DNA of 64,000 nt from Fibrobacter sp. (lineage in GTDB: Bacteria; Fibrobacterota; Fibrobacteria; Fibrobacterales; Fibrobacteraceae). Each line of letters begins with the position of its first letter. Within the stretch, counting starts at the first letter, position 1. The stretch is taken from positions 86,069 through 150,068 of the forward strand of contig NZ_JBGUQY010000024.1 of the NCBI RefSeq assembly GCF_045131395.1. Direction: 5' to 3'. Below, one piece after another: positions 46,895-61,370 of the stretch. The translations under genes were made by a program, and so were the position numbers. Under the pieces are notes generated by a model. It was not told where the DNA came from. It made no database searches and was given only the letters and a program-made list of their open reading frames with translations.

Positions 46895-46969
46895 GGTGGG
46901 TGTAGCTCAATTGGTTAGAGTCCCAGATTGTGATTCTGGATGTTGTCGGTTCGAGTCCGGTCACCCACC
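46895..46969 (+). tRNA. tRNA-His (GTG anticodon) with encoded G-1
   Basis: Cloverleaf folded by hand. Acceptor GTGGGTG/CACCCAC with an extra 5' G opposite C73. Anticodon stem CCAGA/TCTGG with loop TTGTGAT. TTCGAGT T-loop. Similar to E. coli tRNA-His from memory. Confidence 0.88.
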
Positions 46970-46973
46970 CTTA

Positions 46974-47003
46974 AAAAAGACCTCGCATTCGCGGGGTCTT
47001 TTT
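46974..47003. repeat. 30-bp repeat AAAAAGACCTCGCATTCGCGGGGTCTTTTT (bidirectional terminator hairpin), copy 1
   Basis: Identical 30-mer at 49757..49786. Stem GACCTCGC/GCGGGGTC. Confidence 0.9.
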
Positions 47004-47032
47004 TTGTTCTTATGGAGGAAACAAAAGCGTTT

Positions 47033-48592
47033 TTAATCGTCTTCTTTTTTCGCGGGAATGTAGGGCTTATCAAGCGAATTGAGCTTGACATAGACTTCTA
47101 CATAAGCCGTACGCTCTTCAACATCCGGGGCCACCCCAATGGTATATCGAATCGCATATCCCGCAACAGCACGAATCTTATCCGAATCAAACTCATACGC
47201 CTCCCCAACACAAATGGTATCAAGCCAGATTTCATAATGAACGTTCGGATATCGAGGATCGTCCCACTCATCGCCATCCCATATTCTAGTATCATGTATC
47301 AACACGCTTCGTCCTTTATAAAGATCATCGACACCATACTCTGCTTTAAAGGCGTCCTCATCCATCAAATATTCGTCAGCATTCGTTTCTTTATCATCTC
47401 GATAAACACCCTGACAACATTCTTTATACAAAGTTTCAGGAGTTTTCTCTTCAAGAACATAATGGTAAATCAGGTCGTGTAAATCCTGCCATTCCTTCGT
47501 ATGGCCGGGCGTTTTCGAGGATGATTCATCCTTTTCAGGATCATAGAACGCTTCGGCATAGGCTTCTACATATTTTTCAAATTCGGGAACCGATTCCGTG
47601 TATTCCCATCCGGCAATATTTTTGCGAATTGTTTCCAATTGGCCGTTTTCTTTGGCTGAATGAGCCCAATTGGCAATTTTGGTTTTCATTTCAGCATCCC
47701 ACTCGCCCGTTTTGGTATAAGATTTCCTTAACGAGTCTACACTATAAGTAAGATGCGCATTCTTTTCTGATTCCGTCTGCGCCGTCAGGAGCACACTCGC
47801 CGCCAAAAGCGCCGCATTGCCATCCCCTGGCTTAAGGATATCCAAGTCTGCAAAATCACCGATATCGTCTTTAATGTCAAACAGCGCAAGGATTTCTTTT
47901 TTCGCCAGAGCCTTTGCTTCCGCCACAGGCATTTTCTTTTCTTCCACAAGATACATTATGCGGTCGTATTCAAGCTGCGTAAACACGTTAATATTCACAG
48001 TGCTGCGATTTTCCAAATTAACAAAGGCGTGCAGCAATACTTCTTTCTTCGACTTTGCCCCAGTATGTTCATCTAGATAATAACCCTCCACTTTGATTTT
48101 AGCGCACGAAGAAGCCATGTTAAGATTTTCAACATTGTACACTCCGTTTTCCATATCAATACGAGCATTCCAAAACTTTTCGTCACCACTCGTTCTTCTT
48201 AATGTTTCGCAATCAACTTCTCCCACCCAAACCGAACCGTCAATAAACGGGCCCTTCTGAGCAACGCCACTCAACGCCTTATTCTCGACCGCATATTCCT
48301 TGGAATCTTCAGAACTCGAAGAAACAGCCTTTTCAGAGTCAGAGGATTCTGCCTTTTCGGAACTTGAAGATTCGATTTTCTCGTTCTTTTCGGAACTCGA
48401 AGACTTCCCTTTTTTATCTTTGCCCGCAATCGAAGACGAAGAAGTGCCCTCGTCGTCACCGGATTCCACGTCCTCGATATATTCTTCCGAGTCTTCCCCG
48501 GCAACACCGCTGCTTTCGCTGGAGCAGCCCGTTACCACCAGAGCCATACTGACGGCTGCCAACGCCGTGATTTTTCCAAGTTTATTTTTCAT
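47033..48592 (-). CDS. lipoprotein: Ser/Glu-rich linker + shared N-module (type I) + C-terminal domain X
   Basis: Lipobox VVTGCS. SGVAQKGPFIDGS...NINVFTQLEYDRIMYLV...GDGNAALLAASV. The C-terminal ~130 aa are related to the C-terminus of 48619..49560. Confidence 0.8.
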   Translation of the reverse strand: MKNKLGKITALAAVSMALVVTGCSSESSGVAGEDSEEYIEDVESGDDEGTSSSSIAGKDKKGKSSSSEKNEKIESSSSEKAESSDSEKAVSSSSEDSKEYAVENKALSGVAQKGPFIDGSVWVGEVDCETLRRTSGDEKFWNARIDMENGVYNVENLNMASSCAKIKVEGYYLDEHTGAKSKKEVLLHAFVNLENRSTVNINVFTQLEYDRIMYLVEEKKMPVAEAKALAKKEILALFDIKDDIGDFADLDILKPGDGNAALLAASVLLTAQTESEKNAHLTYSVDSLRKSYTKTGEWDAEMKTKIANWAHSAKENGQLETIRKNIAGWEYTESVPEFEKYVEAYAEAFYDPEKDESSSKTPGHTKEWQDLHDLIYHYVLEEKTPETLYKECCQGVYRDDKETNADEYLMDEDAFKAEYGVDDLYKGRSVLIHDTRIWDGDEWDDPRYPNVHYEIWLDTICVGEAYEFDSDKIRAVAGYAIRYTIGVAPDVEERTAYVEVYVKLNSLDKPYIPAKKEDD

Positions 48593-48618
48593 TTTCTACC
48601 TTCTTTTTGTGTTTAAGG

Positions 48619-49560
48619 TTAATCCTGTTTTGCCCTATACCTTACCGGGATCCATATTGAAAGATTTCCTTCAAGCCCCAAAGACTGGCAAAAATATCTA
48701 ACATCGTATATTGCGTACATTTCGACGTAAATCTCCGGCCAATTCGTCCCCACCAATATGGAATCCAATCCTGCTTTAAAGCGGCATTCCGGTTTATTGA
48801 GATTAGTCCAATTAAAACCTTCCCACAGAATTTCATCTTCATAAAGCCTATCCGTTAAATGCTGATCATAACCATCATATTGATATTCGGCAACGAAATC
48901 ATCCTTAGGCATTCTATACTCATCAAGTCTTAAAATTTTGTCGGAGCGATCCAGTCTGAAAGAACGAGTTTCATGCAAATATTGAATCGAATTATTCTCC
49001 ACTACGGACGTAACAGAATCTCTGATGATTTCCCATTCCTTTGCATTGTTTAGTTCAACCGATTCAGGCTCAGCAGATTCAATCGGTTCGATCTTTTCTT
49101 CAGAGTTTGAAGGTTCAGCCTGTTCAGTTTTTTCTTCTGAGGGATCTGTGGTTTCAGCCGGATCTGTCTTTTCTTCAGGTTCAGCTTTGTTCGGTTCAGT
49201 AGGTTCTTCAGGTGCGGCAACATCGCTAGATTCAGCCGGTTCTTCTGTTTCTGGAGTGGTTGTCGGCTTTTCTTCGGCTTCAGTATTTTCTTCGGCTTCG
49301 GCCGGTTCCTGTTCTTCAGATTCAGAGGTTTCAACTTCTTCTTCCGATGTTTCTTTACCCTTTGAAGATTCCTCGACCTCCGAAGATTCGATTTGTTCGT
49401 CGTTGCCGGATTCCACGACTTCGGAGTTTTCGTTCGCATCGATTGCATCCATGCTGTCGCCATCAACAGAGCAGCCTGTCACCACCAGAGCCGTGCACAA
49501 GTACATTGCCGATACAGACAACAGGCCTGCGCCAAGAACTTCGTACCATTTATTTTTCAT
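48619..49560 (-). CDS. lipoprotein: long acidic Glu/Pro/Thr-rich linker + C-terminal domain X (no N-module)
   Basis: Lipobox VVTGCS. ~140 aa of E/P/T/S-rich sequence. The C-terminus DEYRMPKDDFVAEYQYDG...ILWEGFNW...LDSILVG parallels DEYLMDEDAFKAEYGVDD...IWDGDEW...LDTICVG in the neighbouring gene. Confidence 0.75.
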   Translation of the reverse strand: MKNKWYEVLGAGLLSVSAMYLCTALVVTGCSVDGDSMDAIDANENSEVVESGNDEQIESSEVEESSKGKETSEEEVETSESEEQEPAEAEENTEAEEKPTTTPETEEPAESSDVAAPEEPTEPNKAEPEEKTDPAETTDPSEEKTEQAEPSNSEEKIEPIESAEPESVELNNAKEWEIIRDSVTSVVENNSIQYLHETRSFRLDRSDKILRLDEYRMPKDDFVAEYQYDGYDQHLTDRLYEDEILWEGFNWTNLNKPECRFKAGLDSILVGTNWPEIYVEMYAIYDVRYFCQSLGLEGNLSIWIPVRYRAKQD

Positions 49561-49605
49561 TTTTTCTTCCTTCTTTGTTGGAGTGTTTTGTATTCCTCAC
49601 ACCTA

Positions 49606-49613
49606 CAAATATA
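49606..49613 (-). promoter_or_regulatory. candidate -7 box TATATTTG (promoter D)
   Basis: Exact TATATTTG on the minus strand, 45 nt upstream of the ATG at 49560. Confidence 0.4.
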
Positions 49614-49701
49614 GGCTTTTTAACCAATCTAGAATACAAAATCATCATTTTTCTTTAAATTTTACCATTTTTAATGTTTTTATAAAATTTTAGGCAAGTT
49701 G

Positions 49702-49730
49702 GGATACAAAAGTTGTGTTCTTGGAATACA
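49702..49730. promoter_or_regulatory. distal word pair GGATACA / GGAATACA upstream of promoter D
   Basis: GGATACA at 49702-49708 and GGAATACA at 49723-49730. Further GAATACA at 49632-49638 and inverted TGTATTC at 49589-49595. Confidence 0.35.
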
Positions 49731-49756
49731 GAGTCTAAGCCACTCCATTCCATACG

Positions 49757-49786
49757 AAAAAGACCTCGCATTCGCGGGGTCTTTTT
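49757..49786. repeat. 30-bp repeat (terminator hairpin), copy 2
   Basis: Identical to 46974..47003. Lies 28 nt downstream of the stop of gene 49814..52099. Confidence 0.9.
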
Positions 49787-49813
49787 CGTAGGTCGGAGCG
49801 TTTTTTGACCTAA

Positions 49814-52099
49814 TTAATCTTTTATGCAACGGACAGGGTAGCCAGATTTTTTTTCATATCCATGCAAGCCTACTTCGCCCCCTTTAGACACAGACAAAGC
49901 TACCACAAGTTCATATTCTAGATGATCTCTGATAAAAAGTTCTTCCGAATTCCAATAGTCATCCGTCGAACTCCATATATACCCATACTCGCCATCATCG
50001 TCATAAATATACTCGCCAATATCCATATAAGCCACCGGAATTCTTTTGCGGCCAGAAGGGAGGAACGAAAAACCGTAAGGATTTTGTTCATACAAGGTAC
50101 TAGAAGCATTAAGCGCATCTCCGGCATCATTTACCCCACCAACCGCGAGCACCAATTCATAGAGTTCATCACGATTCGGTATATGCCAGCCAGCAGGGCA
50201 AACACCGCGTACAGGGAAAGTCGGAGTACAAACAACACCGTAGCCACAGCCTTTACCGTTTTCGCTCCATGTCGCAGCACTATCCATGGCCGCGCTCCAA
50301 AAATACAGGCGACCATACTTTGCGCAATATTTCAAGGAATCATTGTAGCAGAAACTGGTAGAATCCAAACTATCCGATGGTTGCAAAGAAGCATAATTCA
50401 AATTTTCCGCCATCCACCACTGTTTGCCAATTTTCACAGTCTTGTAAGTTTGACCGTCGCGGTCATCAGTCAAAGTTCCATACTCGCAATCATCCGAACC
50501 TCTTCTATTGCAAACCCGAGCAACCTCGATGCTGCTAGACGAATTCACCGAAGCAACAGAACTGCTGGAACTAGGCTCAACATCCATCATACAGCGAATA
50601 GATTTACTTATAGATTTATGATCAAGGAATGTAGCCGCATACTCGTTCGTATCCACATGTATGCCATACGCATAGCTAGTGCTTTCATCACTAGAAGTCC
50701 AGAAGAAACCTTCTCGTCCCTCAAATTGGAACACTCCACTCTCATTCTTGAAACCAGCAGGCAACGCAGTAAAGGAATAGTCATCCGTGCCGTTATGTCC
50801 TCCATCCCAACCAGTTGTTGATTTAAGCTTTCCGCCCGCTTCCCATCTTTCTCCAACCAGTTCGATTAGCGAGACAAACTCCTCTACGCTCGGCAAATGC
50901 CACCCTGTCGGGCAAGCATTCAACGCATCTTTCCAAGCATAAAGATGACCATATTTATCACAATAGCTCGCACTGTCATTATAGCAGTAACTGTTCGGCG
51001 TTTCGTAGTTCAAGTTTTCCGCCATCCACACTTGGCCACCGATTTTAGTCGTTCTATAAGTCCTTCCGTCGCGCAGGTCCTTGAGCGTATTTGCAGCCGC
51101 ATCGTACCTACTGCCCGCATCCGCCTTTACGGAACTGCTACTAGAAGACGAGTTCACCGAGTCAGCCGGAGAGACCGAGCTGCTGGATTGCTTCGTTTCA
51201 CTTCCAATGACGTCACTGGAGGAAGATCCTTCGACTTCGCTCAGGATGACACTGTCGCCATCCGCGGAAGTAACTACGGGAATGTACTTCTCGAATGCAG
51301 GGATGGAATCTCCATAGCCCAAGCCTTCGATATTCTTGCGGATAGAATCAAGTTTTCCGTTTGCCGAAGCTTCCGCAACCCATTCCGCAATCGCCTTTTT
51401 CGTTTCAGAGTCTTTCCACTCGCCGCTTTCGGCAAAGGAATCGTCAAAATTGTCGAGGCGCTTGGCAAGTGCGGTTTCATCGGCATCCCCCTGCATTATC
51501 ACGCTTACGGCCAGGAGCGCGGCGTTACCGTCGCCCGACTCAAAGATATTCAGGTTTTCAAATTCATCGACTTCGTCCTTGATATCGAAGGCGGCAAGAA
51601 CTTCCTTTTCGGCCTGGACTTTTGCCTTGGCCAAGGTTTTGCTCTTTTCTTTCACAAGATACATCATGCGTTCGTACGCCAGATTCGTAAGCAAGTTGAC
51701 GTTTACATTCTCGCGATCCTTGAGGTCGGTCAATGCGCGGAGCGTCAGTTCGCCCTTCGTCTTCTTGCCGGTAACTTCGTTCAGGTACCTACCCGTCACC
51801 TCGACCACTGCGCAAGAGGTATCCAATGCAACGCTGTCAAGAGCAAAGTCGCCCTTGTCACTCTTGATTGCACCCTCGAAAACCTGGTCCGTGAATTCCA
51901 GCGTCTTACAGTCAATGCCACGAACCGTCACGGCAGAGCCCTTCACGAACGGGCCCTTCTGGGCAACGCCCGCCACGTCGGCCACAAAGCCGGCATCTTC
52001 AGTGACACCGCCCGAAACGCGTTCTTCATCGTCGCTGGAGCATGCGGCAAACAGCACCGACATTCCCACAAACGCAGAAACAAACAAGTTACTCTTCAT
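49814..52099 (-). CDS. lipoprotein: shared N-module (type I) + two Fib_succ_major (TIGR02145/FISUMP) domains
   Basis: Lipobox LFAACS (ATG at 52099). GVAQKGPFVKGS...NVNLLTNLAYERMMYLV...GDGNAALLAVSV. Two copies of the D.RDG.TY+T.KIG.Q.WMAENLNY....YG.LY.W....CP.GWH.P pattern. Confidence 0.85.
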   Translation of the reverse strand: MKSNLFVSAFVGMSVLFAACSSDDEERVSGGVTEDAGFVADVAGVAQKGPFVKGSAVTVRGIDCKTLEFTDQVFEGAIKSDKGDFALDSVALDTSCAVVEVTGRYLNEVTGKKTKGELTLRALTDLKDRENVNVNLLTNLAYERMMYLVKEKSKTLAKAKVQAEKEVLAAFDIKDEVDEFENLNIFESGDGNAALLAVSVIMQGDADETALAKRLDNFDDSFAESGEWKDSETKKAIAEWVAEASANGKLDSIRKNIEGLGYGDSIPAFEKYIPVVTSADGDSVILSEVEGSSSSDVIGSETKQSSSSVSPADSVNSSSSSSSVKADAGSRYDAAANTLKDLRDGRTYRTTKIGGQVWMAENLNYETPNSYCYNDSASYCDKYGHLYAWKDALNACPTGWHLPSVEEFVSLIELVGERWEAGGKLKSTTGWDGGHNGTDDYSFTALPAGFKNESGVFQFEGREGFFWTSSDESTSYAYGIHVDTNEYAATFLDHKSISKSIRCMMDVEPSSSSSVASVNSSSSIEVARVCNRRGSDDCEYGTLTDDRDGQTYKTVKIGKQWWMAENLNYASLQPSDSLDSTSFCYNDSLKYCAKYGRLYFWSAAMDSAATWSENGKGCGYGVVCTPTFPVRGVCPAGWHIPNRDELYELVLAVGGVNDAGDALNASSTLYEQNPYGFSFLPSGRKRIPVAYMDIGEYIYDDDGEYGYIWSSTDDYWNSEELFIRDHLEYELVVALSVSKGGEVGLHGYEKKSGYPVRCIKD

Positions 52100-52952
52100 G
52101 ATCTCCATCCTTTTTTGTCGCAACCTTGCCGTCTTTCTTTAAACATACACTCATCGGGAACAATTGCAAGTTCAGGCGGTACACTTGCTCCGTGTCATCG
52201 TCTTCGGTCACGATGGCCATAATGCGGCGACGACAATCTGCAAGTTCCTTCCTAATGCGTTCGTAAGCGCGGCGGGTAATTCCCATGGTAAGGCCCGACA
52301 TGTCGCGTTCCGAAAGAGGCAAACTCAGCGCCTTGACGGCGAATTCAGCCATCTGGCGCTGCAAATCGCGGGCCGCCACGGGCACGGCGTCTACAGAGCC
52401 CATCGAAATGGCCTTGTCCGTCTGGTGGTAATTCCCGTCCTTGTCTTTTTTGAGGAGCTTGGCACGCAGCAAAAAGTCCAAGGTCTCGGAGACCTCGGCT
52501 GCGGTAATCGGCTGCTTGCAAGCCTTCGCCATTTCAAGCGGCTTTGCACCGGGCATGTGAGGAGCAAGCTCTCGCAGCACCGGGTTTTTCCACGATTTAA
52601 AATACTTGAACTCTTCGTCCCCCAGCACACGTACCTTGTGAGCCATGGCCAAAGCGCAGCGCTCTTCGAACGCGGCACGCTTCGCCTCGTCCCCCTTCGC
52701 ATGCGCATATGAAACCATCAGCACAAAGTACGTGTGTTCAAACCCCACCAACCCCATAGCACTCGCTACGGAACCTGCAGCCCCTACGCTCAGGTTTTTC
52801 TTCCCCTCACAGACATACTTCAGATAAACCGCCGACGAAAACCCTGCGTCTCGCGCAAAATCTCGCCAGGTAAACGCTGAAGTGCGCTTACGTTCATCGT
52901 AGTAGTCCTGGATGAACTTGCGGTAATCTGTGTATTCTACGATCTCCTTCAT
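52089..52952 (-). CDS. TIGR02147/DUF4423-family HTH protein (cassette A)
   Basis: MKEIVEYTDYRKFIQDYYDERKR..FTWRDFARDAGFSSAVYLKYVCEGKKNLS (XRE-like HTH). Its stop overlaps the next gene start by 11 nt. Confidence 0.85.
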   Translation of the reverse strand: MKEIVEYTDYRKFIQDYYDERKRTSAFTWRDFARDAGFSSAVYLKYVCEGKKNLSVGAAGSVASAMGLVGFEHTYFVLMVSYAHAKGDEAKRAAFEERCALAMAHKVRVLGDEEFKYFKSWKNPVLRELAPHMPGAKPLEMAKACKQPITAAEVSETLDFLLRAKLLKKDKDGNYHQTDKAISMGSVDAVPVAARDLQRQMAEFAVKALSLPLSERDMSGLTMGITRRAYERIRKELADCRRRIMAIVTEDDDTEQVYRLNLQLFPMSVCLKKDGKVATKKDGDHEE

Positions 52953-52957
52953 GGATA

Positions 52958-52965
52958 CAAATATA
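52958..52965 (-). promoter_or_regulatory. candidate -7 box TATATTTG, 5 nt from the ATG (near-leaderless geometry)
   Basis: The minus strand reads TATATTTG-TATCC-ATG. Confidence 0.4.
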
Positions 52966-53055
52966 GACTAATTGCATAATCTCGGGACACAAATCAGCCT
53001 TTTTCTTTCAAATTTTACCAATTCTGCATAATTTTAAAAATTTCAGCAATTTCAA

Positions 53056-53082
53056 GAATACAGCCTGTATTCCAGGAATACA
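53056..53082. promoter_or_regulatory. cassette-A-specific words GAATACA / TGTATTC / GAATACA
   Basis: Words at 53056-53062, 53066-53072 (inverted) and 53076-53082. They lie ~105-130 nt upstream of the regulator ATG. Confidence 0.35.
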
Positions 53083-53147
53083 AGAATTCACTATACCTTT
53101 GGTATATTACCAAAAGCATAGTGTGCTTTGGGAACACTTTAACGCAT

Positions 53148-55142
53148 TTATTTCTTTTTATACTGCGTGTGAATTATTATAGAATAACCGTATACAAACT
53201 TGGTCAAAGTATTACCAGCCATCGCTGAGGCGGCACGCATTCCGGCCCCCACATGAACATCAACTTCAAACTTCGCCATTTCGGTTTCTTTTTCGTACAA
53301 ATGGCGTATAATAATTTCGCTTTTCGTCACGATATGATCATGATTATATTTCGCAGGATCATACTCCTTCTCGGCAACCGTATCCGACTTCACATACGTA
53401 AAGCCATTTTCAAGCAGCAAATTTCTAAACACTTCAAGGCTATCCCCAGCCGCATCCTCTTTCGATTGATCCATGAGGATTGTACTAAAAGTTTGCATCT
53501 GAACCCAAGCTGTATCCGTCTCATAATGAGCAGTCCAAACTGTTGTAAGGGAGTCGTCATCCCAAGCATCCAGACTTTTCAACGAAAGGTATTCTGCCGC
53601 AAAGTCAAATTCTTTTGACAATTTATCAAAACGAAGCGAGCTATAATCGGTCGTCGGCATTTCTTCGAAGCCGTCTTTCAGCACCACGACCTTCACCTTA
53701 AAGGAAAAATCACTACCAAACATAATACCCAGAACTCGTTCCTTCGAAATAGAAATCTTGTAAAGAACGTTTTCCTTTTTTAACGAATAAACATACGACA
53801 GCGTATCATACCACGCGGCATCTAGGGAATCATTATTTATGACACCTTCAAAAGAAAATTCTTTATCCCCCATCGTCTTTACCAATGCGCTAGCAACGGA
53901 ATCCCTTCCGCTCTGATAGCTTTCCTGTTTTGCCTGAAGGAACCAAACTTCCTGCTTGCCTTCGCCAAAGCTCCTGTAGCCGATGAACGAATATGTCGAA
54001 TCGAATAAGTCTAGTTCCGCAGGAAGAGGCGGAATCGTATCTTCGGGTTCACTAGAAGAAGAGCTTACAAACGGATCATAGAGAGAACTCGACGAAACGT
54101 CAGCGGAACTACTAGACCCTTCGACTCCGCTCGGGGTGACACTAGAAGACGATTCAGGTTCATCACCCGGAATATGCCAGCGGCCCTTTTCGCACACGAA
54201 GTATTCGTTGTACAGTTTACTGAGCTTGTTTATGTTGCGCTTGGTTTCGTTTTCGCGTTTGTCGGTGCAGGCGCCGAGGCCGTAGTTATCCCACCAGAAG
54301 TTCGTCACATACTTTTCGAATGCGGGTACGGTGTCGGCATATTTCCAACTTTCCACGTTCTTGCGTATCTTCGAAAGGGAGCCCTTCAAGTCTATATCGC
54401 AGGCCCAATCCGCAATCAAGGCCTTGGTGTCGGCATCGTCCCAGCTACCACCCTCTGCAAGCGATATACTGAATTCGCCGATACGTTCGGTAAGTCCCGC
54501 CACGTCCACATCGCTTTGCAGGAGTACACTTACCGCGAGGAGCGCGGCGTTGCCATCACCCGTCTTGAAGATGTTCAAGTCTTCGGATTCACCAAAGTCG
54601 CCCGCGATTGCAAACGACGCTAGGACCTCTCCTTCGGCCTGCGCCTTCGCATCGGCAATGGACATTTTCTTCTTGTTGACCAAGTACATCACGCGCTCAT
54701 ATTCCAAATGCGTGAGCAAGTTGATATTCACCGTCTTTCTACTCGAAAGATCCGTCAGCGCGCGCAGCGTCACCATGCCCGAAGACTTCTTGCCAGAAAC
54801 TTCGTCGCGGTAATACCCCGTCGCCTCGAGAATCGCATACTGCGATTCCAGATTAATATCCTTGATGGCAAAGTCGCCCTTGTCGCTCTTGATGGAGCCC
54901 TTGAAACTCTTGCCTGTCTGCTTGAGCGTGATACCGTCCAGTTCCTGCACGGCCACTGCGGAACCCGTAACGAACGGACCCTTCTGCGACACTCCGGCCA
55001 CTTCCAAGTCTACGACAGCGGTAACGCCGGCATCGCCCGAAGCACCGCCACCGAGATCCATACTATCGGAGTCGCCTCCGGAACAAGCCCAGAACATGGC
55101 CCCGACTACAAGACTCCCTATAATGCGATTTCTCTTCATCAT
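53148..55142 (-). CDS. lipoprotein: shared N-module (type I) + unrelated ~330-aa C-terminal region
   Basis: Lipobox MFWACS (start at 55142; alternative ATGs at 55157 and 55175). GVSQKGPFVTGS...NINLLTHLEYERVMYLV...GDGNAALLAVSV. The C-terminal part has no FISUMP motif. Confidence 0.8.
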   Translation of the reverse strand: MMKRNRIIGSLVVGAMFWACSGGDSDSMDLGGGASGDAGVTAVVDLEVAGVSQKGPFVTGSAVAVQELDGITLKQTGKSFKGSIKSDKGDFAIKDINLESQYAILEATGYYRDEVSGKKSSGMVTLRALTDLSSRKTVNINLLTHLEYERVMYLVNKKKMSIADAKAQAEGEVLASFAIAGDFGESEDLNIFKTGDGNAALLAVSVLLQSDVDVAGLTERIGEFSISLAEGGSWDDADTKALIADWACDIDLKGSLSKIRKNVESWKYADTVPAFEKYVTNFWWDNYGLGACTDKRENETKRNINKLSKLYNEYFVCEKGRWHIPGDEPESSSSVTPSGVEGSSSSADVSSSSLYDPFVSSSSSEPEDTIPPLPAELDLFDSTYSFIGYRSFGEGKQEVWFLQAKQESYQSGRDSVASALVKTMGDKEFSFEGVINNDSLDAAWYDTLSYVYSLKKENVLYKISISKERVLGIMFGSDFSFKVKVVVLKDGFEEMPTTDYSSLRFDKLSKEFDFAAEYLSLKSLDAWDDDSLTTVWTAHYETDTAWVQMQTFSTILMDQSKEDAAGDSLEVFRNLLLENGFTYVKSDTVAEKEYDPAKYNHDHIVTKSEIIIRHLYEKETEMAKFEVDVHVGAGMRAASAMAGNTLTKFVYGYSIIIHTQYKKK

Positions 55143-55208
55143 CCATTCCTTATTCATAAATTTTCTCTCTCCCATATCTAAAATTTCTTTTCTTGACGCA
55201 TCATCACC

Positions 55209-56924
55209 TTAGTTCTTCACGCAACGGACTCGGGCATCCGTTAGCGGTCTCTCTTTAACCAAATAACCATTGGTAGAAATTTCGACACCATAGTCGCCTG
55301 CAGGTCCAGAAACAAGACGATCAGCCAAAGCCTCTTGCTCTTCTTCTAAAAGGTACGGCCAAATTTCCACAATTTCTACATCGGCCAATCTATAACGATA
55401 AGTATTTTGCGTATACGAATGGTAATAGGCCTTCAAGTATACAGTATCCATCGGTGTAAAGCCGAAATCTAAATTATTGTAGAATACGTCAGTCATACCT
55501 TTTTGATAAGCAACATCCATATCCGACGTTTTCCACGTTTCATTAAACAGCTTTTTGACACCACCGGCATAATCAATCAAGTTTTTCCACTCTTCGGTAT
55601 TGGACACATGCCACCCATCTGGACAAATACCTTGATGAACAGAATCGATCAAATCATTTTTAACAACCATCCCCATGTATCTGTCCTCAATTTGCATAGC
55701 CTTCGTCCAGATATAGGCACCATCAGATTTGTATTTGAGGTCCTCCGCCATCCATTCATATTTTTTTCCTTTGTATTCAAAACTAACAGTCTTGTATTTG
55801 CGCCCATCACGAGAATCAGTCATGATTCCTATTTCGTGTTCAACATTCGCCATGAGAGAATCAAGGTGCTCTTTCGTTGTCAAGCGCCAATAATATCCAT
55901 TGCAAAGGAAATAACCCGATTGAAGGAATTCATCGCCATAACTTATCGGCTTATTGAATTCTCTGTATTCTCCCCAAAGTGCCTCGGTACAAGATTCTAA
56001 ACCCATGTAATGCTGAATCAGCTGCGCACTGAAATCGGACATTCGTTTCTCGGACATTATTTTAGTCCAAACATAGGCAATGCCAGCGAGGCCTTGCATA
56101 AGCGAATCGTCAAGAACTCCGTCATCTGCGAAATCATTGACAAATTCATCGACATAATCTTGCAGTTTGGAGCAATCAACATCATGTGCTACATCATCAT
56201 CCATATTAAAATTATCGCGCATTATTTCAATAATTTCATCAGAAGATGCAGAGTACCATGCATTCCAATTTGGATTTTCATCAATGATGCGACTAATGTA
56301 GTAGAGAGTTCTATCTGCATCAGATGTATTGTAAATATTCAAATCCTCTGCAGAGGGCGTTTCAATCTTGGCACCAAATGCACCAAGAACCTCTGTTGCA
56401 GCCCGTCTCTTAGCCTCAGCAAAAGACTCGCCCTCTTTGATTAAGTTCAAAACTCGTTTGTATTCGAAATGAGTCAAAAGGTTGACATTCACGGTTTCAC
56501 GTTTCTCCAAATTAGAAACCGCATCAAGGCGCATAGAGCATCTTGAAATTTCGCTATTGCTTTCGTGGTGATAGCGGCCTTCTACAGAAATAAGCACATA
56601 CTGACTTTCCAAATCTAGACTATCAAACTGAAATTCACCCTCGTCATTAAAAGTCTTAACAACGAACTTTCGACCTGTGGGTTCAAAACTTCCATCATCA
56701 GATGTTTCTCTGAGGGTTACAGTGGAACCTTTCACAAACGGGCCCTTCTGCGACACACCGGCAATTCTCTTATTCGAAATACCCACAATGCCAGCATCAC
56801 CCGACGCGCCACCGGAAATATCTTGATCAGAATTTGAGCAACCCGCAACAAAGACCGCCATCATTGCCATCAACGGGATATATACCAGCCCGCGCCTCAT
56901 CTTTTGACTCATGTTATTACTCAT
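55209..56924 (-). CDS. lipoprotein: shared N-module (type II) + one Fib_succ_major domain
   Basis: Lipobox FVAGCS. GVSQKGPFVKGSTVTLRETSDDGSFEPTGRKF...NVNLLTHFEYKRV. The C-terminus has DSRDGRKYKTV...WMAEDLKY...GICPDGWHVSNTEEW. Confidence 0.85.
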   Translation of the reverse strand: MSNNMSQKMRRGLVYIPLMAMMAVFVAGCSNSDQDISGGASGDAGIVGISNKRIAGVSQKGPFVKGSTVTLRETSDDGSFEPTGRKFVVKTFNDEGEFQFDSLDLESQYVLISVEGRYHHESNSEISRCSMRLDAVSNLEKRETVNVNLLTHFEYKRVLNLIKEGESFAEAKRRAATEVLGAFGAKIETPSAEDLNIYNTSDADRTLYYISRIIDENPNWNAWYSASSDEIIEIMRDNFNMDDDVAHDVDCSKLQDYVDEFVNDFADDGVLDDSLMQGLAGIAYVWTKIMSEKRMSDFSAQLIQHYMGLESCTEALWGEYREFNKPISYGDEFLQSGYFLCNGYYWRLTTKEHLDSLMANVEHEIGIMTDSRDGRKYKTVSFEYKGKKYEWMAEDLKYKSDGAYIWTKAMQIEDRYMGMVVKNDLIDSVHQGICPDGWHVSNTEEWKNLIDYAGGVKKLFNETWKTSDMDVAYQKGMTDVFYNNLDFGFTPMDTVYLKAYYHSYTQNTYRYRLADVEIVEIWPYLLEEEQEALADRLVSGPAGDYGVEISTNGYLVKERPLTDARVRCVKN

Positions 56925-56949
56925 TGTTCAACTCCTTGTTTAAACCATT

Positions 56950-57771
56950 TTATTTTTTCAAACGTTCGCTCATGGGGAACAGCTGCACGTTCAGGCGATA
57001 AACCTGTTCCGTTTCATCATCTTCTGTCGCAATCGCCACCACGCGGCGGTAATAATCTTCCGTCTCTTTTTTGATGCGCTCGTACGCGCGGCGCGTTAGG
57101 CCAAGCGTGTAACCCGACATGACTCGTTCCGAAATCGGCAAGTCAATGGACTTGAGGGCGAATTCGCCCATCTGGCGCTGCAAATCGCGAGCCGCCAGCG
57201 GCACCGCCTCTACCGGGGCCATTTTAATCGCCTTGTCCGTTTGGCGGTAATTTCCGTCGCGGTCCTTCTTCAAGAGCTTCGCCTTCACCAAAAAGTCAAG
57301 AGTCTCGGAAACTTCCGCCGCCGAAATTTTAGGCTTGCAGGCATGGGCAATTTCAAGAGGCTTTGCGCCCGGCATGTGCGGGGCCAGTTCGCGGATTACA
57401 GAATTTTTCCACGACTTGAAATACTTGAATTCCTCGTTTCCGAGGATGCGCACCTTGTGGGCGTTCGCCAGCGCGCAGCGTTCCTCGAAAGCGGCCTTCT
57501 TCGCCTCGTTGCTCTTTGCATGCGCATAAGAAACCATCAAGACAAAGTATTCGTGTTCGAAACCGACAAGCCCCATGGCAGTAGCCACCGAACCCGCCGA
57601 CCCGACGCTCAAATTCTTTTTCCCTTCGCAGACATACTTCAAGTAGACATCCGACGAAAAGCCCGCCTTTTGGGCGAAAGCGTGCCAGGAGAAAGCCGAG
57701 CAGCGCTTGCGTTCATCGTAATAGTCCTGAATGAACTTGCGATAATCAGTGTATTCTACTATTTCCTTCAT
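56950..57771 (-). CDS. TIGR02147/DUF4423-family HTH protein (cassette B)
   Basis: MKEIVEYTDYRKFIQDYYDERKRCSAFSWHAFAQKAGFSSDVYLKYVCEGKKNLS. Confidence 0.85.
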   Translation of the reverse strand: MKEIVEYTDYRKFIQDYYDERKRCSAFSWHAFAQKAGFSSDVYLKYVCEGKKNLSVGSAGSVATAMGLVGFEHEYFVLMVSYAHAKSNEAKKAAFEERCALANAHKVRILGNEEFKYFKSWKNSVIRELAPHMPGAKPLEIAHACKPKISAAEVSETLDFLVKAKLLKKDRDGNYRQTDKAIKMAPVEAVPLAARDLQRQMGEFALKSIDLPISERVMSGYTLGLTRRAYERIKKETEDYYRRVVAIATEDDETEQVYRLNVQLFPMSERLKK

Positions 57772-57776
57772 GTCTA

Positions 57777-57784
57777 CAAATATA
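57777..57784 (-). promoter_or_regulatory. candidate -7 box TATATTTG, 5 nt from the ATG
   Basis: The minus strand reads TATATTTG-TAGAC-ATG. Confidence 0.4.
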
Positions 57785-57871
57785 GATTCATCTAGTCCAT
57801 TTAGAACATAAAATTTGCGTTTTTAAGCAAATTTTACCACTTTTCAGCATTTTACTAAAATTTCAACATTC

Positions 57872-57901
57872 TAGAACATGGTCAGCATATTCCTAGAACA
57901 T
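57872..57901. promoter_or_regulatory. cassette-B-specific word TAGAACAT x2 (22-bp spacing)
   Basis: Copies at 57872-57879 and 57894-57901, plus a proximal copy at 57802-57809. Confidence 0.35.
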
Positions 57902-57936
57902 GAAAGCAACGGAGCCGAACGGTCTCACAAGAAAGA

Positions 57937-57958
57937 CCTCGCTAGCGTCCTAGCGAGG
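57937..57958 (-). terminator. terminator hairpin after gene 58037..59572
   Basis: CCTCGCTAG(CGTC)CTAGCGAGG, followed on the minus strand by TCTTTCTT. Confidence 0.5.
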
Positions 57959-58036
57959 CTTCTCTCCTAACCGTCCCCTTGCCCGACTCCATCGGGCCCA
58001 AACGAGGGGACTCAAATGTATTTTACCATGCCAGTC

Positions 58037-59572
58037 CTAGTTCTTCACGCAGCGGACAGGATAATACAAATCCCGGTGGAACACACGATTCGAATTCCAA
58101 TTCCAGACATTTTCCACGACGAAACCTAGATCATCTACCAAGTCGAGCGTGAAATTGTATTCAAAATCAACATAAAAGCGACTACTTTTATCTAGCGACT
58201 TTTTCGCACCCGAATCCGTATACTGCAAATAAACAAATAATTCACGAGTTTCATAGTCATCCCTCATCGCATCCCACAAAGACCTCCATTCTTCAACATA
58301 GGGAAGATGCCATCCATCCGGGCAAATGCCTTGGATAAATTCACTAAACAACATCTGGTTATGGATATCCGCCTCCAAGCCCACGTAGCTAAACTTTTCA
58401 TCAGCAGGATAATCAAACACCTGATAACCGTAGTACTCGCGTCCCACCCCGGGAACATTGCGGGCATCGGCCTTAAAACTGTTCTTGGGTTCATATTCCA
58501 AAAGGCTCGCCATCCAAGTCGCAATTCTACCGTTCTCCATTTTGACATCTAAAGTCTTATAGACATGGCCATCTCGTTCATCAACCAAGGCGCCATATTT
58601 GCCTGCAGTATCCACAGGTTCATCACCTTCGTCTCTGGCCCCATGGTAATATTTCCACACACCATCGCGACAAATTACGCGACTATAAAGGCTATCATTA
58701 AACCGGGTCGTTCTCCAGACTTCATCCTGATTGAGGCAGTGTTCCCAGGTAGAATCCCAAGGAGATGCGAACTGCTTCAAATATTTCTGGAAATCGGGAA
58801 TTTCTGTTGCGCCCATATTCTTTAAATTTTGCAAGACCCCTTTGTATACGCCATCATGATTGTCCATCGAGACAAAGCGCTTTATCTGGGCAATCAAAAC
58901 GCTGTCATCCCAAATACCGTCTTCTTCTAGATCCATCGCAATAGAAGCCAAACGGCTAGTGACCTCGCCAACATTGGCGGCCGTAAGCATCATCAAAGAG
59001 ATTGCAAGCAATTTAGCATCACTTTCGCCATTGTTCAAAATATCAAGATCTTCAAAGGACTCTTCCGATTCAGAGAAACCAAACGCTTCCAACACTTCCT
59101 TTTCAGCTTGACGCTTCGCCTTATCGACAGGATTTCCATTTTTGACAAGGTAACGAATTCGATTGAAGGACAAATGAGTCAGAATATTAATATTGACATG
59201 ATCCCGGTCCTGTAAATCAACAAGACTGTTCAACGATATTTTTTGAGCAGAGGTGTCACCCGTTATTTCATCGATATAGTAGCCGTTCGCCACAAGCCAA
59301 GCGTAACGATTTTCCAAATTAATTTTTTTCAGGGTGTATTCACCACTATTGTTGTCTATTTCCGTGGAAAAATGCGTTCCCGTCTGAATCAGTCCCTCAT
59401 CCATTCCATAAAGGGTTACTTCAGTTCCCTTTACGAAAGGCCCCTTCTGCGACGTTCCGTAAATAGTTCTGCTTCCTTCCGACAATGCGGAACTTGAATC
59501 GTTCTGACTGCACGCCGCAAGGAACATTCCTAGAACAAACAAAACGCTAATTTGTTTATATCCCTTAAACAT
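58037..59572 (-). CDS. lipoprotein: shared N-module (type I) + one Fib_succ_major domain
   Basis: Lipobox FLAACS. GTSQKGPFVKGT...NINILTHLSFNRIRYLV. The C-terminus has DERDGHVYKTL...GICPDGWHLPYVEEW. Confidence 0.85.
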   Translation of the reverse strand: MFKGYKQISVLFVLGMFLAACSQNDSSSALSEGSRTIYGTSQKGPFVKGTEVTLYGMDEGLIQTGTHFSTEIDNNSGEYTLKKINLENRYAWLVANGYYIDEITGDTSAQKISLNSLVDLQDRDHVNINILTHLSFNRIRYLVKNGNPVDKAKRQAEKEVLEAFGFSESEESFEDLDILNNGESDAKLLAISLMMLTAANVGEVTSRLASIAMDLEEDGIWDDSVLIAQIKRFVSMDNHDGVYKGVLQNLKNMGATEIPDFQKYLKQFASPWDSTWEHCLNQDEVWRTTRFNDSLYSRVICRDGVWKYYHGARDEGDEPVDTAGKYGALVDERDGHVYKTLDVKMENGRIATWMASLLEYEPKNSFKADARNVPGVGREYYGYQVFDYPADEKFSYVGLEADIHNQMLFSEFIQGICPDGWHLPYVEEWRSLWDAMRDDYETRELFVYLQYTDSGAKKSLDKSSRFYVDFEYNFTLDLVDDLGFVVENVWNWNSNRVFHRDLYYPVRCVKN

Positions 59573-59573
59573 A

Positions 59574-60404
59574 TTAATCCTCCATAAACCAGCCTTTTAA
59601 AACAGAATGCAGCATCTGTGAATCAAACCGTTCATAGTCATCCCCCGCAAGGATGTCAACAAAATTGTCTAGATAATTCTGAACTTCTTCACAGTATTTT
59701 TCGGGTTCCTCTTCATACTGTGTATAATAAGTTTTATGGTCTCTAGAATGCCAATGAACAGTTCCATACTCCTCACCGAAGAGGATATGGTCAACAAAGG
59801 TGCTGATTTTTTTCAGAGCCTTGTCGGCATCCCCGCTATTGTTGATATTCAGATTTTCAGAATCTTCCGCCAAATCATCGTAGTAGAACGCCTTCATCAA
59901 TTCTTGACGGGCCTGTTTCTTGGCTTCTGTAAAGGTCTTTCCTTTCTTTATCAAAGCAAGCGTGCGATCGTATTCCAGATGCGTCAGCACATTCACATTA
60001 ATTTGCTCTCGATTGTTAATATCAGACAAAGCCCTCAGACTGACTTGGCACACTGAATTTTCAGCCGTCGTTTCTCTTTTATAGTAACCAGTAGCTTCAA
60101 GCCTTACATATTGACATTCCAAATTGAGGCCATCAATCTTGAAATCACCCTTATCGCTACGGGTTGTTGCAAAGAATTCCCTGCCCGTGGGTTCGAAGTT
60201 TCCTTCTGCTGAGGTTTCCCGGAGGACAATACTGGATCCCGTTACAAAAGGTCCCTTCTGCACCACACCGGCAAGTTCCTTATCTACAATAGCAACAATG
60301 CCTTCGGACTCTTCGCTGGTACCCGCGGTATTGCTTTCTAAACAAGCACTAAGCATCGTCCCCAAGGAGCATGCACACAAAATCCAATTCAAACGCCTAA
60401 ACAT
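59574..60404 (-). CDS. lipoprotein: shared N-module (type II) only, no C-terminal domain
   Basis: ATG at 60404 gives MFRRLNWILCACSLGTMLSAC. GVVQKGPFVTGSSIVLRETSAEGNFEPTGREF...NVNVLTHLEYDRT. Its stop is 1 nt before the next ATG. Confidence 0.8.
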   Translation of the reverse strand: MFRRLNWILCACSLGTMLSACLESNTAGTSEESEGIVAIVDKELAGVVQKGPFVTGSSIVLRETSAEGNFEPTGREFFATTRSDKGDFKIDGLNLECQYVRLEATGYYKRETTAENSVCQVSLRALSDINNREQINVNVLTHLEYDRTLALIKKGKTFTEAKKQARQELMKAFYYDDLAEDSENLNINNSGDADKALKKISTFVDHILFGEEYGTVHWHSRDHKTYYTQYEEEPEKYCEEVQNYLDNFVDILAGDDYERFDSQMLHSVLKGWFMED

Positions 60405-61257
60405 TTTCACCCCCATTGTTCTCATCCCGGCCGCCATTCAAATTGTCTGTCAGCGGGAACAGTTGCATATTCAATCGATAAACCTTTTCTACGTTCTTGT
60501 CTGCCGAGACAATCGACACGATGCGCTTGCGGCATTCTATAAGTTCTTCAATGACCTTCTCGTAGCTTTCGGCAGTCATACCCATGGTAACGCCGCTAAA
60601 GTGACGTTCCGAAATAGGCACGTCGTCTAAAGACTCTAGCGCAAATTCGCCCATCTGGCGTAGCAGGGAATGAACCGCCACCGAAACCACCTTCAGGCGA
60701 CCAGTGGAAAGAGAATGGTTCGTCTGATGATACAAGCCCTTGATATCCTTTGTCAAGAAACCCGCACTGGTCAGAAAGCGAAGACTGTTGCTCACATCGG
60801 CTGCAGAAATAGGGAAACGGCAGGCTTTCGCGATTTCGTGCGGTTTTGCCCCGGGCATAGCCACAGCCAATTCACGGACCACGGAATGTTTCCACGTTTC
60901 ATAGAAGGTGTACATTTCGCTGCCCAAAATTTTCACATGGTGTGCCGAACTCAATGCTTCCATTTCTTCGAAGCATTTTTTCTTTTCGCGGTCTGTTTTT
61001 GCGTTTTCGTATCGAACCATCAAAACGAAGTAGTCGAACTCAAACCCCAGCAACCCCATCGCCAGGGCAGTCTTCTTTGCTCCTTCCTCCCGAAGCCTTG
61101 TTTTGCCATCGCAAACCAGCTTCAAGTATGAACCCGATGCGAAACCAGCAATCTTTGCAAACTCGCGCCAGGTAAACGCCGACGTGCGCTTGCGTTCGCG
61201 GTAGTAGTCAAGTACGTACTCGCGATAATCTTTGTATTCAATAACTGATTTCATCAT
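60397..61257 (-). CDS. TIGR02147/DUF4423-family HTH protein (cassette C)
   Basis: MMKSVIEYKDYREYVLDYYRERKRTSAFTWREFAKIAGFASGSYLKLVCDGKTRL. 8-nt overlap with the next gene. Confidence 0.85.
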   Translation of the reverse strand: MMKSVIEYKDYREYVLDYYRERKRTSAFTWREFAKIAGFASGSYLKLVCDGKTRLREEGAKKTALAMGLLGFEFDYFVLMVRYENAKTDREKKKCFEEMEALSSAHHVKILGSEMYTFYETWKHSVVRELAVAMPGAKPHEIAKACRFPISAADVSNSLRFLTSAGFLTKDIKGLYHQTNHSLSTGRLKVVSVAVHSLLRQMGEFALESLDDVPISERHFSGVTMGMTAESYEKVIEELIECRKRIVSIVSADKNVEKVYRLNMQLFPLTDNLNGGRDENNGGENV

Positions 61258-61370
61258 GACAATAAAATAGATAATCCCATCTATTCATGCAACAATTTTT
61301 AAAAAACAAAAATGTCGTTTTTAAGCAAATTTAAGCACTTTTTGTTTTACGCTAAAGAAATTTCAATTTC

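Follow-up and report, generated by a model that had tools for sequence, protein, structure and literature searches.

Regulator–lipoprotein cassettes of Fibrobacter as candidate autoregulated operons with interchangeable C-terminal payloads

The TIGR02147 ('Fsuc_second')/DUF4423 proteins, a named paralogous family of Fibrobacter succinogenes, and the FISUMP domains of family TIGR02145 have long been listed without a function. The subject here is a tandem array in which the two occur together, in a 64,000-nt stretch of a Fibrobacter sp. contig (NZ_JBGUQY010000024.1, positions 86,069 to 150,068; the whole stretch is called the window). Three full-length TIGR02147/DUF4423 members of the window, R1 (52089–52952), R2 (56950–57771) and R3 (60397–61257), are each followed by lipoprotein genes. 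As an initial annotation of the window had stated, the TIGR02147/DUF4423 record shows the name of a paralogous family and no assigned function; the operators, the autoregulation and the coupling to lipoproteins are newly proposed here. TIGR02147/DUF4423 received one passing mention in the full texts searched, in a Bdellovibrio proteome table in which Bd3700 is annotated DUF4423, and no prior description of TIGR02147, its operators, its lipoprotein pairing or the peptide motif reported below was found in the literature covered, outside which most subscription journals fall. TIGR02145 is present in 17–119 copies per Fibrobacteres genome and has been suggested, without experiments, to be a cohesin analogue or a cellulose-binding module (PMC4704652). 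There are 54 FISUMP copies in F. succinogenes S85. FISUMP has also been grouped with the DUF1566 C-type-lectin-like variable domains that are targets of diversity-generating retroelements (DGRs), for example in the surface lipoprotein LdtA (Wu et al. 2018, PMC5758913).

FISUMP/DUF1566/Lcl_C lipoproteins of the Legionella LdtA type resemble those of this locus in their lipoprotein signal and C-terminal C-type-lectin-like domain, taken here too to be exposed so that it can bind a ligand, but here the domain is an interchangeable payload on a conserved, unannotated pedestal and is varied by domain replacement, with no DGR. On the regulator side, the XRE autoregulators (lambda cI/434 repressor, SinR, DdrO and restriction-modification C proteins) share with R1–R3 a helix-turn-helix (HTH) fold, and their palindromic operators, with extra sites near the regulator's own start, resemble the putative operators of this locus. 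Both C proteins and cI can activate as well as repress their own genes. Unlike these, R1–R3 are predicted to have, besides the HTH, a MarR-like winged helix and a tail of helices, and they have no Pfam HTH match. Two further systems are compared by description. The MrpJ/PapX-type proteins of Proteus mirabilis and uropathogenic Escherichia coli are many small, paralogous HTH regulators, each encoded inside one adhesin (fimbrial) operon, which ties the regulator to the surface structure in expression, as is proposed here. MrpJ-type genes stand at the operon end and act mainly on other loci (flagella), whereas here the regulator gene stands at the head and runs into the payload gene, and its own promoter is the target that the evidence suggests. 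In Bacteroides, of the same FCB superphylum, the surface-glycan and polysaccharide-utilisation loci likewise have a dedicated regulator for each surface-lipoprotein or surface-structure locus (SusR/hybrid two-component systems, extracytoplasmic function sigma factors, or UpxY–UpxZ), but the families and mechanisms differ entirely, and no SusC/SusD pair, anti-sigma factor or antitermination element is present here. The system would be of a familiar kind, a locally autoregulated surface-protein operon, with three unusual features: massive paralogous expansion with orthogonal operator classes, a dual-fold regulator without a solved relative, and a lipoprotein motif that travels across phyla.

We consider it fairly probable that each cassette is a self-contained, autoregulated operon with an activating regulator and lipoproteins of variable payload. 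Linkage was established through a genome scan seeded with R1–R3, which returned 62 Fibrobacter loci whose open reading frames (ORFs) were scanned with profiles derived from the window. A lipoprotein gene with the conserved N-terminal module described below (the N-module) lies directly 3' of, and on the same strand as, 105 of the 107 complete regulator genes, and the linkage that the initial annotation had proposed looking for in related genomes thus holds within the R1–R3 subfamily, to which this seeding confines the sample. The exceptions were one regulator followed by a lipoprotein without the N-module (locus L051) and one without an N-module gene downstream (L039). There is a single N-module gene in 68 cassettes, and there are two in 31, three in 5 and four in 1. 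At 64 of 99 junctions the regulator stop overlaps the lipoprotein start, most often by 4 nt, and at 32 more the two are within 30 nt of each other.

The C-termini of these lipoproteins vary across the loci: one, two or three FISUMP domains were found in 50, 22 and 15 of them, a ~330-aa domain termed Dc in 17, FISUMP with Dc in 6, a domain termed X in 4, and no recognised domain in 18. Direct replacement was seen at locus L002, where the R1 orthologue is 98% identical and its lipoprotein remains ~95% identical through residue ~272 (…PAFEKY); after the Ser-rich linker, an unrelated ~180-aa domain stands where the window copy has two FISUMP domains. The syntenic arrays L002, L025 and L034 also keep their regulators and differ in payload architecture. 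The shuffling of C-terminal domains that had been proposed from the window is therefore observed at an orthologous cassette, and linkage together with C-terminal replacement supports the notion of a repeated regulator-plus-effector cassette, in which control of the downstream genes by the regulator is the part that we infer. FISUMP and TIGR02147 would accordingly be two halves of one cassette, at least in this subfamily.

The minus-strand ORFs of the initial annotation were all found in the window where it had placed them, and the hidden Markov model scores and ORF coordinates agree that each of the three TIGR02147/DUF4423 proteins heads a minus-strand unit. Its count of three cassettes stands for the regulator-headed units, but the transcription units number four, including the regulator-less pair 48619–49560/47033–48592, which lacks a regulator gene and is preceded by a separate promoter bounded by a terminator. 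The R1 stop overlaps its lipoprotein start by 11 nt (52089–52952/49814–52099) and the R3 stop by 8 nt (60397–61257/59574–60404), and a 25-nt gap separates R2 from its lipoprotein (56950–57771/55209–56924). In order of transcription, the features of the array (operator classes are explained below) are as follows.

61326–61399, minus strand: promoter/operator region of cassette 3, T class (TGTTTTA direct repeats, GCTTAAATTTG)
60397–61257, minus strand: R3, TIGR02147/DUF4423 regulator, head of cassette 3 (285 bits TIGR02147; 90.7 bits DUF4423)
59574–60404, minus strand: N-module-only lipoprotein of 276 aa, lipobox LSAC read in the sequence (N-module profile E 7e-100)
58037–59572, minus strand: lipoprotein with N-module and one FISUMP domain (TIGR02145 65.8 bits; N-module E 1e-103)
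57936–57959, minus strand: terminator-like hairpin at the end of cassette 3 (10-bp stem with 6 GC pairs, T-rich tail)
57777–57901, minus strand: promoter/operator of cassette 2, A class
56950–57771, minus strand: R2, TIGR02147/DUF4423 regulator, head of cassette 2, HTH SWHAFAQKAGFSSDVY (334 bits TIGR02147; residue 30 is H)
55209–56924, minus strand: lipoprotein with N-module and one FISUMP domain (TIGR02145 67 bits; PF09603 35.9 bits)
53148–55142, minus strand: lipoprotein with N-module, Ser-rich linker and the unannotated ~330-aa C-terminal domain Dc
53089–53123, minus strand: terminator-like hairpin at the end of cassette 2
52958–53081, minus strand: promoter/operator of cassette 1, G class
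52089–52952, minus strand: R1, TIGR02147/DUF4423 regulator, head of cassette 1, HTH TWRDFARDAGFSSAVY (329 bits TIGR02147; residue 30 is R)
49814–52099, minus strand: lipoprotein with N-module, Ser-rich linker and two FISUMP domains (TIGR02145 333 bits, two stretches)
49756–49781, minus strand: terminator hairpin, GACCCCGCGAATGCGAGGTC plus T-run, at the end of cassette 1 (read directly)
49590–49729, minus strand: 'orphan' promoter, with no regulator gene behind it and all the G-class sites present
48619–49560, minus strand: lipoprotein with an acidic low-complexity region and domain X, without N-module
47033–48592, minus strand: lipoprotein with an acidic/Ser-rich region, N-module and domain X (window-derived profiles: N-module E 5e-106, X E 2e-85)
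46973–47004, no strand assigned: terminator hairpin at the array end, adjoining tRNA-His
46896–46970, plus strand: tRNA-His (Rfam)

This tRNA-His was the sole match in an Rfam scan of the window. The hairpin sequence GACCCCGCGAATGCGAGGTC ends both cassette 1 (49756–49781) and the last unit (46973–47004), and a hairpin common to two units suggests that the terminator was duplicated together with a cassette. Every unit is delimited by terminators. Array synteny is kept among Fibrobacter species.

Assignment of the regulators was unequivocal by profile. R1, R2 and R3 scored 328.7, 334.4 and 285.2 bits against TIGR02147 (NCBIfam; curated cut-off 50 bits), covering profile positions 1–270/272, and 99.9, 92.9 and 90.7 bits against DUF4423 (Pfam PF14394; gathering threshold 30 bits) over residues ~103–268; the profile searches named by the initial annotation (TIGR02147, DUF4423 and TIGR02145) thus all returned strong matches above their cut-offs. 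R2 is 80% and R3 52% identical to R1. The XRE-like HTH that had been noticed near the N-terminus appeared as a fold in an AlphaFold2 model of R1, but no Pfam HTH family matches R1–R3 at E ≤ 0.01; one distant relative, P0365, does contain PF13560. The model, built from a 134-sequence alignment (mean predicted local distance difference test (pLDDT) 86.4; predicted template-modelling score (pTM) 0.65), consists of an N-terminal helical domain with the HTH, a winged helix (helices 138–163, strands 167–177) and C-terminal helices. Its HTH is a five-helix fold modelled with pLDDT 95–97 over residues 11–80, whose Foldseek neighbours are DdrO, SinR, Stl and C proteins. Against the DdrO N-domain (6rnz), 61 columns superposed with a root-mean-square deviation of 1.7 Å, a target-normalised TM-score of 0.73 and a probability of 1.00, at a weak E value (0.5). 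The winged helix aligned to MarR- and PhiH1-like proteins. No whole-chain neighbour was found in the Protein Data Bank (PDB) by Foldseek (best E 0.25), and a PDB sequence search with the regulators gave no match. As modelled, the TIGR02147 regulator is a protein of two predicted DNA-binding folds with no other recognisable domain.

A single arrangement recurs in the ~150 nt that precede 104 distinct Fibrobacter regulator genes. Relative to the ATG, it comprises a 6-3-6 palindrome at about −130/−121, a third half-site in direct orientation at −108 and a fourth at −38 (hexamer orientations −130(+), −121(−), −108(+) and −38(+)), together with two conserved promoter-like elements, TGGTAAAATTTG at about −68 and CTATATTTG ending 5 nt 5' of the ATG. 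The half-sites were recovered by an unbiased k-mer count. They fall into three classes, termed G (GT[AG]T[TC]C, 50 cassettes), A (AT[AG]T[TC]C, 32 cassettes) and T (TGTTTTA direct repeats, 15 cassettes), represented in the window by R1, R2 and R3, respectively. Where all four canonical sites were present (n = 75), 42 cassettes were all-G, 32 all-A and a single one mixed. The T-class direct repeats have a layout of their own (−142, −121 and ~−50), seen in 15 R3-like cassettes.

In cassette 1, the palindrome GTATTC-CTG-GAATAC occupies 53067–53081, followed by GTATTC at 53056–53061 and GTGTCC at 52985–52990; TGGTAAAAT lies at 53012–53019 and TATATTTG at 52958–52965, ending 5 nt 5' of the ATG. The hexamers of cassette 2 are ATGTTC at 57896–57901 with its inverted partner at 57887–57892, and ATGTTC again at 57874–57879 and 57804–57809, with TGGTAAAAT at 57831–57838 and TATATTTG at 57777–57784. 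Cassette 3 has its TGTTTTA repeats at 61393–61399 and 61372–61378 and a −10-like GCTTAAATTTG at 61326–61336. Such patterns are rare by chance: the G-class palindrome pattern matched twice in 64 kb (0.06 expected) and the A-class pattern once (0.08 expected). The orphan promoter, between 49814–52099 and 48619–49560, has a palindrome at 49715–49729, GTATCC at 49702–49707, GTATTC at 49632–49637, TGGTAAAAT at 49659–49666 and TATATTTG at 49606–49613, which also fits CTATATTTG, followed by a 45-nt leader before 48619–49560. In 752 kb of Fibrobacter loci the full promoter architecture occurred 67 times, 66 of them before regulators, the sole exception being this orphan promoter (49590–49729).

Which element directs transcription bears on how the sites would act. 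At about −65, TGGTAAAAT matches an extended −10 element and, should it serve as the promoter, would give a leader of about 53 nt and place the palindrome centre near −69 from the start and the fourth site at about +17. The proximal TATATTTG (−13 to −6) fits TAnnTTTG and TATAAT-like boxes, and if it is the promoter, the regulator mRNA would be leaderless. TAnnTTTG, considered as a possible general −7 box of the genome, was found in sense orientation in 2 of ~20 non-cassette upstream regions, a small sample. In several distant family members (L063, L088, L121, L124 and L131) the best −35/−10 pair puts the start site at the start codon. From this start-site placement and from the position of TATATTTG close to the ATG (within 52953–52965 and 57772–57784), many regulators may be translated from leaderless mRNAs.

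Operator class changes in step with the regulator. Residue 30 (R1 numbering), in the first HTH helix, is R throughout the G class (50 of 50 regulators), and the 29 regulators of the A class all have H (17) or Q (12) there. Further positions that separate the classes best are 28, 31, 34 and 41 in the HTH and, elsewhere, 183, 217–221 and 241. One regulator, L016_7021 (L016:7021–7851), has a body that groups with the G class (80% identical to R1), an A-type HTH segment (SWHAFAQKAGFSSDVY) and ATGTTC at all four sites; it is a natural chimaera, or recombinant, whose operator class agrees with its HTH. As several sites per promoter change together with the sole cassette-specific DNA-binding protein, the TIGR02147 proteins would bind their own promoters, and the pattern points to autoregulation.

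The pairing extends well beyond Fibrobacter. The R1–R3 profile matched 10,412 clusters at 50% identity (E ≤ 1e-3), nearly all of ~280 aa, with named sources in Chitinivibrionales, Chitinispirillaceae, other Fibrobacterota and a 'Deltaproteobacteria' bin. Breadth was sampled with three long contigs and 80 metagenome loci, the latter scanned with a 21-sequence alignment subset of distant representatives; regulators in this sample are 27–45% identical to one another. The gene next 3' of these distant regulators begins, in nearly all cases, with a 4-nt overlap of the regulator stop and encodes a signal peptide with a Cys, directly behind which lies the motif [AG]-G-[GDT]-[ST]-[ST]-E-[TV]-[GT]-N (typically A-G-G-T-T-E-T-G-N-P/A). 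A profile of this motif scored at least 6 bits in 43 of the 76 genes that directly follow a regulator and in none of 667 control ORF N-termini, a motif-based count that replaced an over-strict lipobox regular expression (37 of 74); variants of the motif were seen by eye in most of the remaining downstream genes. Other partner domains were CarboxypepD_reg with DUF2341 and Laminin_G_3, Beta_propel, CarboxypepD_reg with fn3, DUF4382 and He_PIG/Big_9. The window cassettes are thus best described, from these comparisons, as a Fibrobacter-specific expansion of a general regulator–lipoprotein pair.

Upstream of the distant regulators, a search that required arms starting with GT found a GTnnnn-N2-7-nnnnAC palindrome in 44 of 69 members from metagenomes; in shuffled sequences and coding controls the rates were 19% and 10%, respectively. 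Its core varies together with the recognition helix in at least seven distant classes, including the following.

GTAT[TA]C: helix SPN[YF]LKLV
GTTTCC: helix KS[RK]GFL[YF]NV
GTTC[CT]C: helix KSKT[FY]..KV
GTTCG: helix NSSG[ML]YKD
GTTGTC: helix KARDYILRV
GTGGAC: helix D[PA]SYL.KV

Helix identity was 70% between pairs with the same core and 34% between pairs with different cores, a separation reached by 0 of 2000 permutations. In distant members with a sigma-70-like promoter, the palindrome centre lies at −58 to −66 relative to the estimated start site in 13 of 28 (median −62; seven operator classes), and an extra half-site is present in the 5' leader of several.

The lipoproteins themselves are built on a shared N-terminal module. 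The initial annotation had noticed it in six of the seven lipoproteins, and both profile and alignment agree: the N-module is ~240 aa long, its alignment contains invariant G..QKGPF..G, N.N..T and R residues, and a six-sequence profile matched just those six ORFs in the window (E 1e-100 to 1e-110). An AlphaFold2 model of one copy (51230–52099; pLDDT 86.7, pTM 0.81) has a disordered signal peptide and linker (residues 1–37), a beta-sandwich (38–125) and a helical bundle (136–272). The best PDB match of the sandwich was the non-heme domain of Geobacter PgcA (9i0d, E 1e-4), with transthyretin-like and pilin sandwiches as weaker structural matches. PgcA is an extracellular lipoprotein cytochrome, and the modelled likeness hints at a 'first domain after the lipid anchor' common to surface lipoproteins. 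The Fibrobacter N-module has no Pfam match, CarboxypepD_reg (PF13620) included, and was found in Fibrobacter proteins only; PF13620 was matched above threshold by partner lipoproteins of distant regulators.

The listed C-termini (two or one FISUMP domains, an unrelated ~330-aa region, X, or none) likewise agree with the ORF and profile results. TIGR02145 (NCBIfam cut-off 41.65 bits) matched two copies in 49814–52099 (333.5 bits) and one each in 55209–56924 (67.1 bits) and 58037–59572 (65.8 bits), as the initial annotation had placed them. With Pfam PF09603, Fib_succ_major (cut-off 33.9 bits), the first two passed at 184.8 and 35.9 bits, and 58037–59572, at 28.7 bits, fell below the Pfam threshold though above the NCBIfam cut-off. 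The FISUMP domain also matches Lcl_C (Pfam). Dc, which had no Pfam, NCBIfam or PDB sequence match, recurs in 23 lipoproteins of other loci, sometimes fused behind FISUMP. Domain X is common to 47033–48592 and 48619–49560 (BLASTP 30% identity over 134 aa, E 1e-9), and sequence searches of Pfam, NCBIfam and the PDB returned no match for it. It is a C-terminal domain of ~150 aa that recurs in other Fibrobacter loci. FISUMP (C-type-lectin-like), Dc and X are presumed to bind ligands.

All seven lipoproteins have a lipobox (LFAAC, MFWAC, FVAGC, FLAAC, LSAC or VVTGC, at residues 20–31), called by regular expression and by eye. Behind the lipobox Cys, the window lipoproteins have acidic residues and a conserved motif, GG[ATSV][ST][EG]DAG, homologous to that of the distant partners, at about residues 25–40; it occurs in 69 of 148 Fibrobacter N-module proteins, and three other lipoproteins in the window lack the GG-x-T/S-E-D-A-G motif. 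The lipoproteins are lipid-anchored and probably surface-exposed; the acidic residues, the motif and the analogy with LdtA are suggestive of surface lipoproteins of the FCB group, with their Bacteroidetes-type export signal.

Put together, these observations suggest the following mechanism. The TIGR02147 protein would be a cytoplasmic transcription factor whose N-terminal XRE-type HTH is followed by a MarR-like winged helix, corresponding to the DUF4423 part, and by C-terminal helices. Its HTH would bind a class-specific hexamer set in its own promoter, namely a palindrome ~65–70 bp upstream of the likely start, an adjoining third half-site and a fourth ~70 bp downstream. Binding at the upstream palindrome, in a class I-like position, would activate transcription and give positive feedback, and the downstream half-site would limit expression at high regulator levels. 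The regulator gene would share a transcript, and for the most part translational coupling, with the one to four lipoprotein genes behind it, and the regulator would so switch on its own payload. A conserved pedestal, made up of a disordered linker with GG-x-T/S-E-D-A-G, a prealbumin-like beta-sandwich and a helical bundle, may then present the variable C-terminal domain. Through their three operator classes, the R1, R2 and R3 cassettes would form separate regulatory channels, and the regulator-less unit 47033–49560, with its R1-class sites, should follow R1 in trans. Over evolutionary time the payload would diversify by recombination at the Ser-rich linker. In this scheme, family membership, linkage, site architecture, site–regulator co-variation, predicted folds and C-terminal replacement are observed; we infer the binding itself, whether it activates or represses, the exposure of the lipoproteins at the surface and their ligands. 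As to sign, our best guess is activation with a feedback limit, favoured because the palindrome centre of distant members lies near −62, the position of class I activators; the −58 to −66 region is where class I (CRP-type) activators work.

Several points weigh against this reading. The Fibrobacter sample, seeded with R1–R3 motifs, speaks for that subfamily only. Co-variation is confounded by shared descent, as the G and A classes are largely clades, and its independent instances are the H and Q subclades and one recombinant; among distant members the constancy of GT is partly built into the search. Residue 30 (R versus H/Q) was rejected as a general code for the first operator base, as some classes of distant regulators with Q, H or K have operators starting with GT, and the R-to-G reading appears to be local. 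Surface exposure rests on by-eye lipoboxes and on analogy with LdtA. Proteomics of F. succinogenes S85 showed lower levels on cellulose for 40 of the 49 lipoproteins quantified, which cautions against a simple cellulose-adhesin role (PMC6851124).

The sign of regulation could also be the opposite. TIGR02147 may be a classical autorepressor, perhaps looping the palindrome to the proximal half-site and released by a signal sensed by the DUF4423 half, an alternative that is possible though we are inclined to doubt it. Most solved neighbours of the XRE-type HTH (DdrO, SinR, Stl and C proteins) are repressors, and the extra 5'-leader half-site of several distant members would fit repression. Furthermore, if TATATTTG is the true −10/−7 element, the fourth hexamer (−38 to −33) overlaps the core promoter and repression becomes more likely than activation, which is a further point against the activator. 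However, in distant members with clear −35/−10 elements the palindrome lies 5' of the −35, its centre near −62 and off the core promoter, and the Fibrobacter palindrome is far upstream of either candidate promoter.

An improbable alternative to autoregulation of either sign is that the hexamers are bound by another shared factor or are merely inherited promoter sequence, and that TIGR02147 acts elsewhere or is no transcription factor at all, being for example a cytoplasmic partner that the lipoprotein precursor needs. The 4-nt overlap implies that the two proteins are made in near-stoichiometric amounts, something unusual for a transcription factor, and the sole feature common to all partner lipoproteins is their N-terminal motif. 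Against this, all four sites change class together (74 of 75) in step with the regulator HTH, helix and operator co-vary across at least seven distant classes, and the protein consists of two DNA-binding folds with no other recognisable domain.

Slightly less probable still is that the array is an active variation system that alters surface lipoproteins within a lineage, through a DGR acting on FISUMP, through promoters that invert or through gene conversion still under way between paralogues. In its favour, DGRs target FISUMP/DUF1566 domains in other systems (PMC5758913), the array consists of paralogous cassettes in tandem and in one orientation, and the C-terminus differs between near-identical orthologous cassettes. 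Yet repeats within 46.5–64 kb of the window are at most 75–82% identical, no inverted repeat of 40 nt or more and no template/variable repeat pair was seen there, and the sole palindromes are the 15-nt operators. No reverse transcriptase was found in Pfam scans of 20 other large window ORFs, the window being annotated only in part. A DGR, DNA inversion and ongoing gene conversion were rejected on the lack of near-identical or long inverted repeats, and the regions scanned contain neither the hallmarks of a DGR target nor those of invertible-promoter phase variation. Because of this repeat divergence and the lack of long inverted repeats, C-terminal swapping is attributed to evolutionary recombination at low-complexity linkers. 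That the cassettes are selfish or defence modules (toxin–antitoxin-like or anti-phage, with an XRE-type antitoxin or regulator) is exceedingly unlikely, for although many type II toxin–antitoxin and defence operons are typically organised in this way, with an XRE-type HTH gene that overlaps the one behind it, and gene 44147–44980 resembles the candidate defence protein PDC-S68, PADLOC assigned no family to the two regulators and four lipoproteins tested, the downstream products are large, modular extracytoplasmic proteins with signal peptides and lipoboxes, and the arrays are syntenic among Fibrobacter species.

The autoregulated-operon reading has several consequences. A proposal of DNA-binding autoregulation would give the ~10,000-cluster DUF4423 family its first testable function. 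The family is also linked, in organisms of rumen, soil, sediment and sludge origin, to an N-terminal lipoprotein motif that had escaped notice. The reading predicts, in testable form, exact operator sequences, one residue that would determine specificity, three regulator–operator pairs that would be orthogonal within a single locus, and an orphan unit regulated in trans. For rumen biology it would offer a handle on surface variation and its control in a major fibre degrader, and for synthetic biology a natural set of orthogonal regulator–operator pairs. A bolder extension, which is speculative and on balance rather unlikely, is a self-contained surface-display switch widespread across phyla, with bistable cassettes, orthogonal operators and the motif as a sorting or export signal. 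If so, a dual-HTH regulator that activates its own expression from a class I-like site would be made in a fixed ratio with its payload and cells would display different lipoprotein subsets, amounting to phase variation without DNA change; dozens of cassettes could coexist per genome, and A-G-G-T-T-E-T-G-N (in Fibrobacter GG-x-T/S-E-D-A-G) would be a dedicated sorting or export signal.

The remainder of the window provides some further observations. Just upstream of the array, 61444–63996 (minus strand) codes for a secreted protein of 850 aa, whose match to a type IX secretion C-terminal sorting domain is weak (26.1 bits, cut-off 27). On the other side of the array, 44147–44980 (minus strand) encodes a 277-aa protein without a Pfam match, whose C-terminal ~120 aa match the C-terminus of PDC-S68 (PADLOC, E 2e-23). 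A glycoside hydrolase family 9 (GH9) cellulase and a GH44-like protein are encoded at 32988–34805 and 29951–32935. The stretch at ~8000–28400 has a low GC content (33–40%, compared with ~52% in its flanks) and contains surface-polysaccharide biosynthesis genes, among them those for a UDP-galactopyranose mutase, group 1 glycosyltransferases and a DegT aminotransferase; it looks like a horizontally acquired glycan island. It is bracketed by three CotH-family genes (6852–9821 and 28611–29930), the two at 6852–9821 having lipoboxes.

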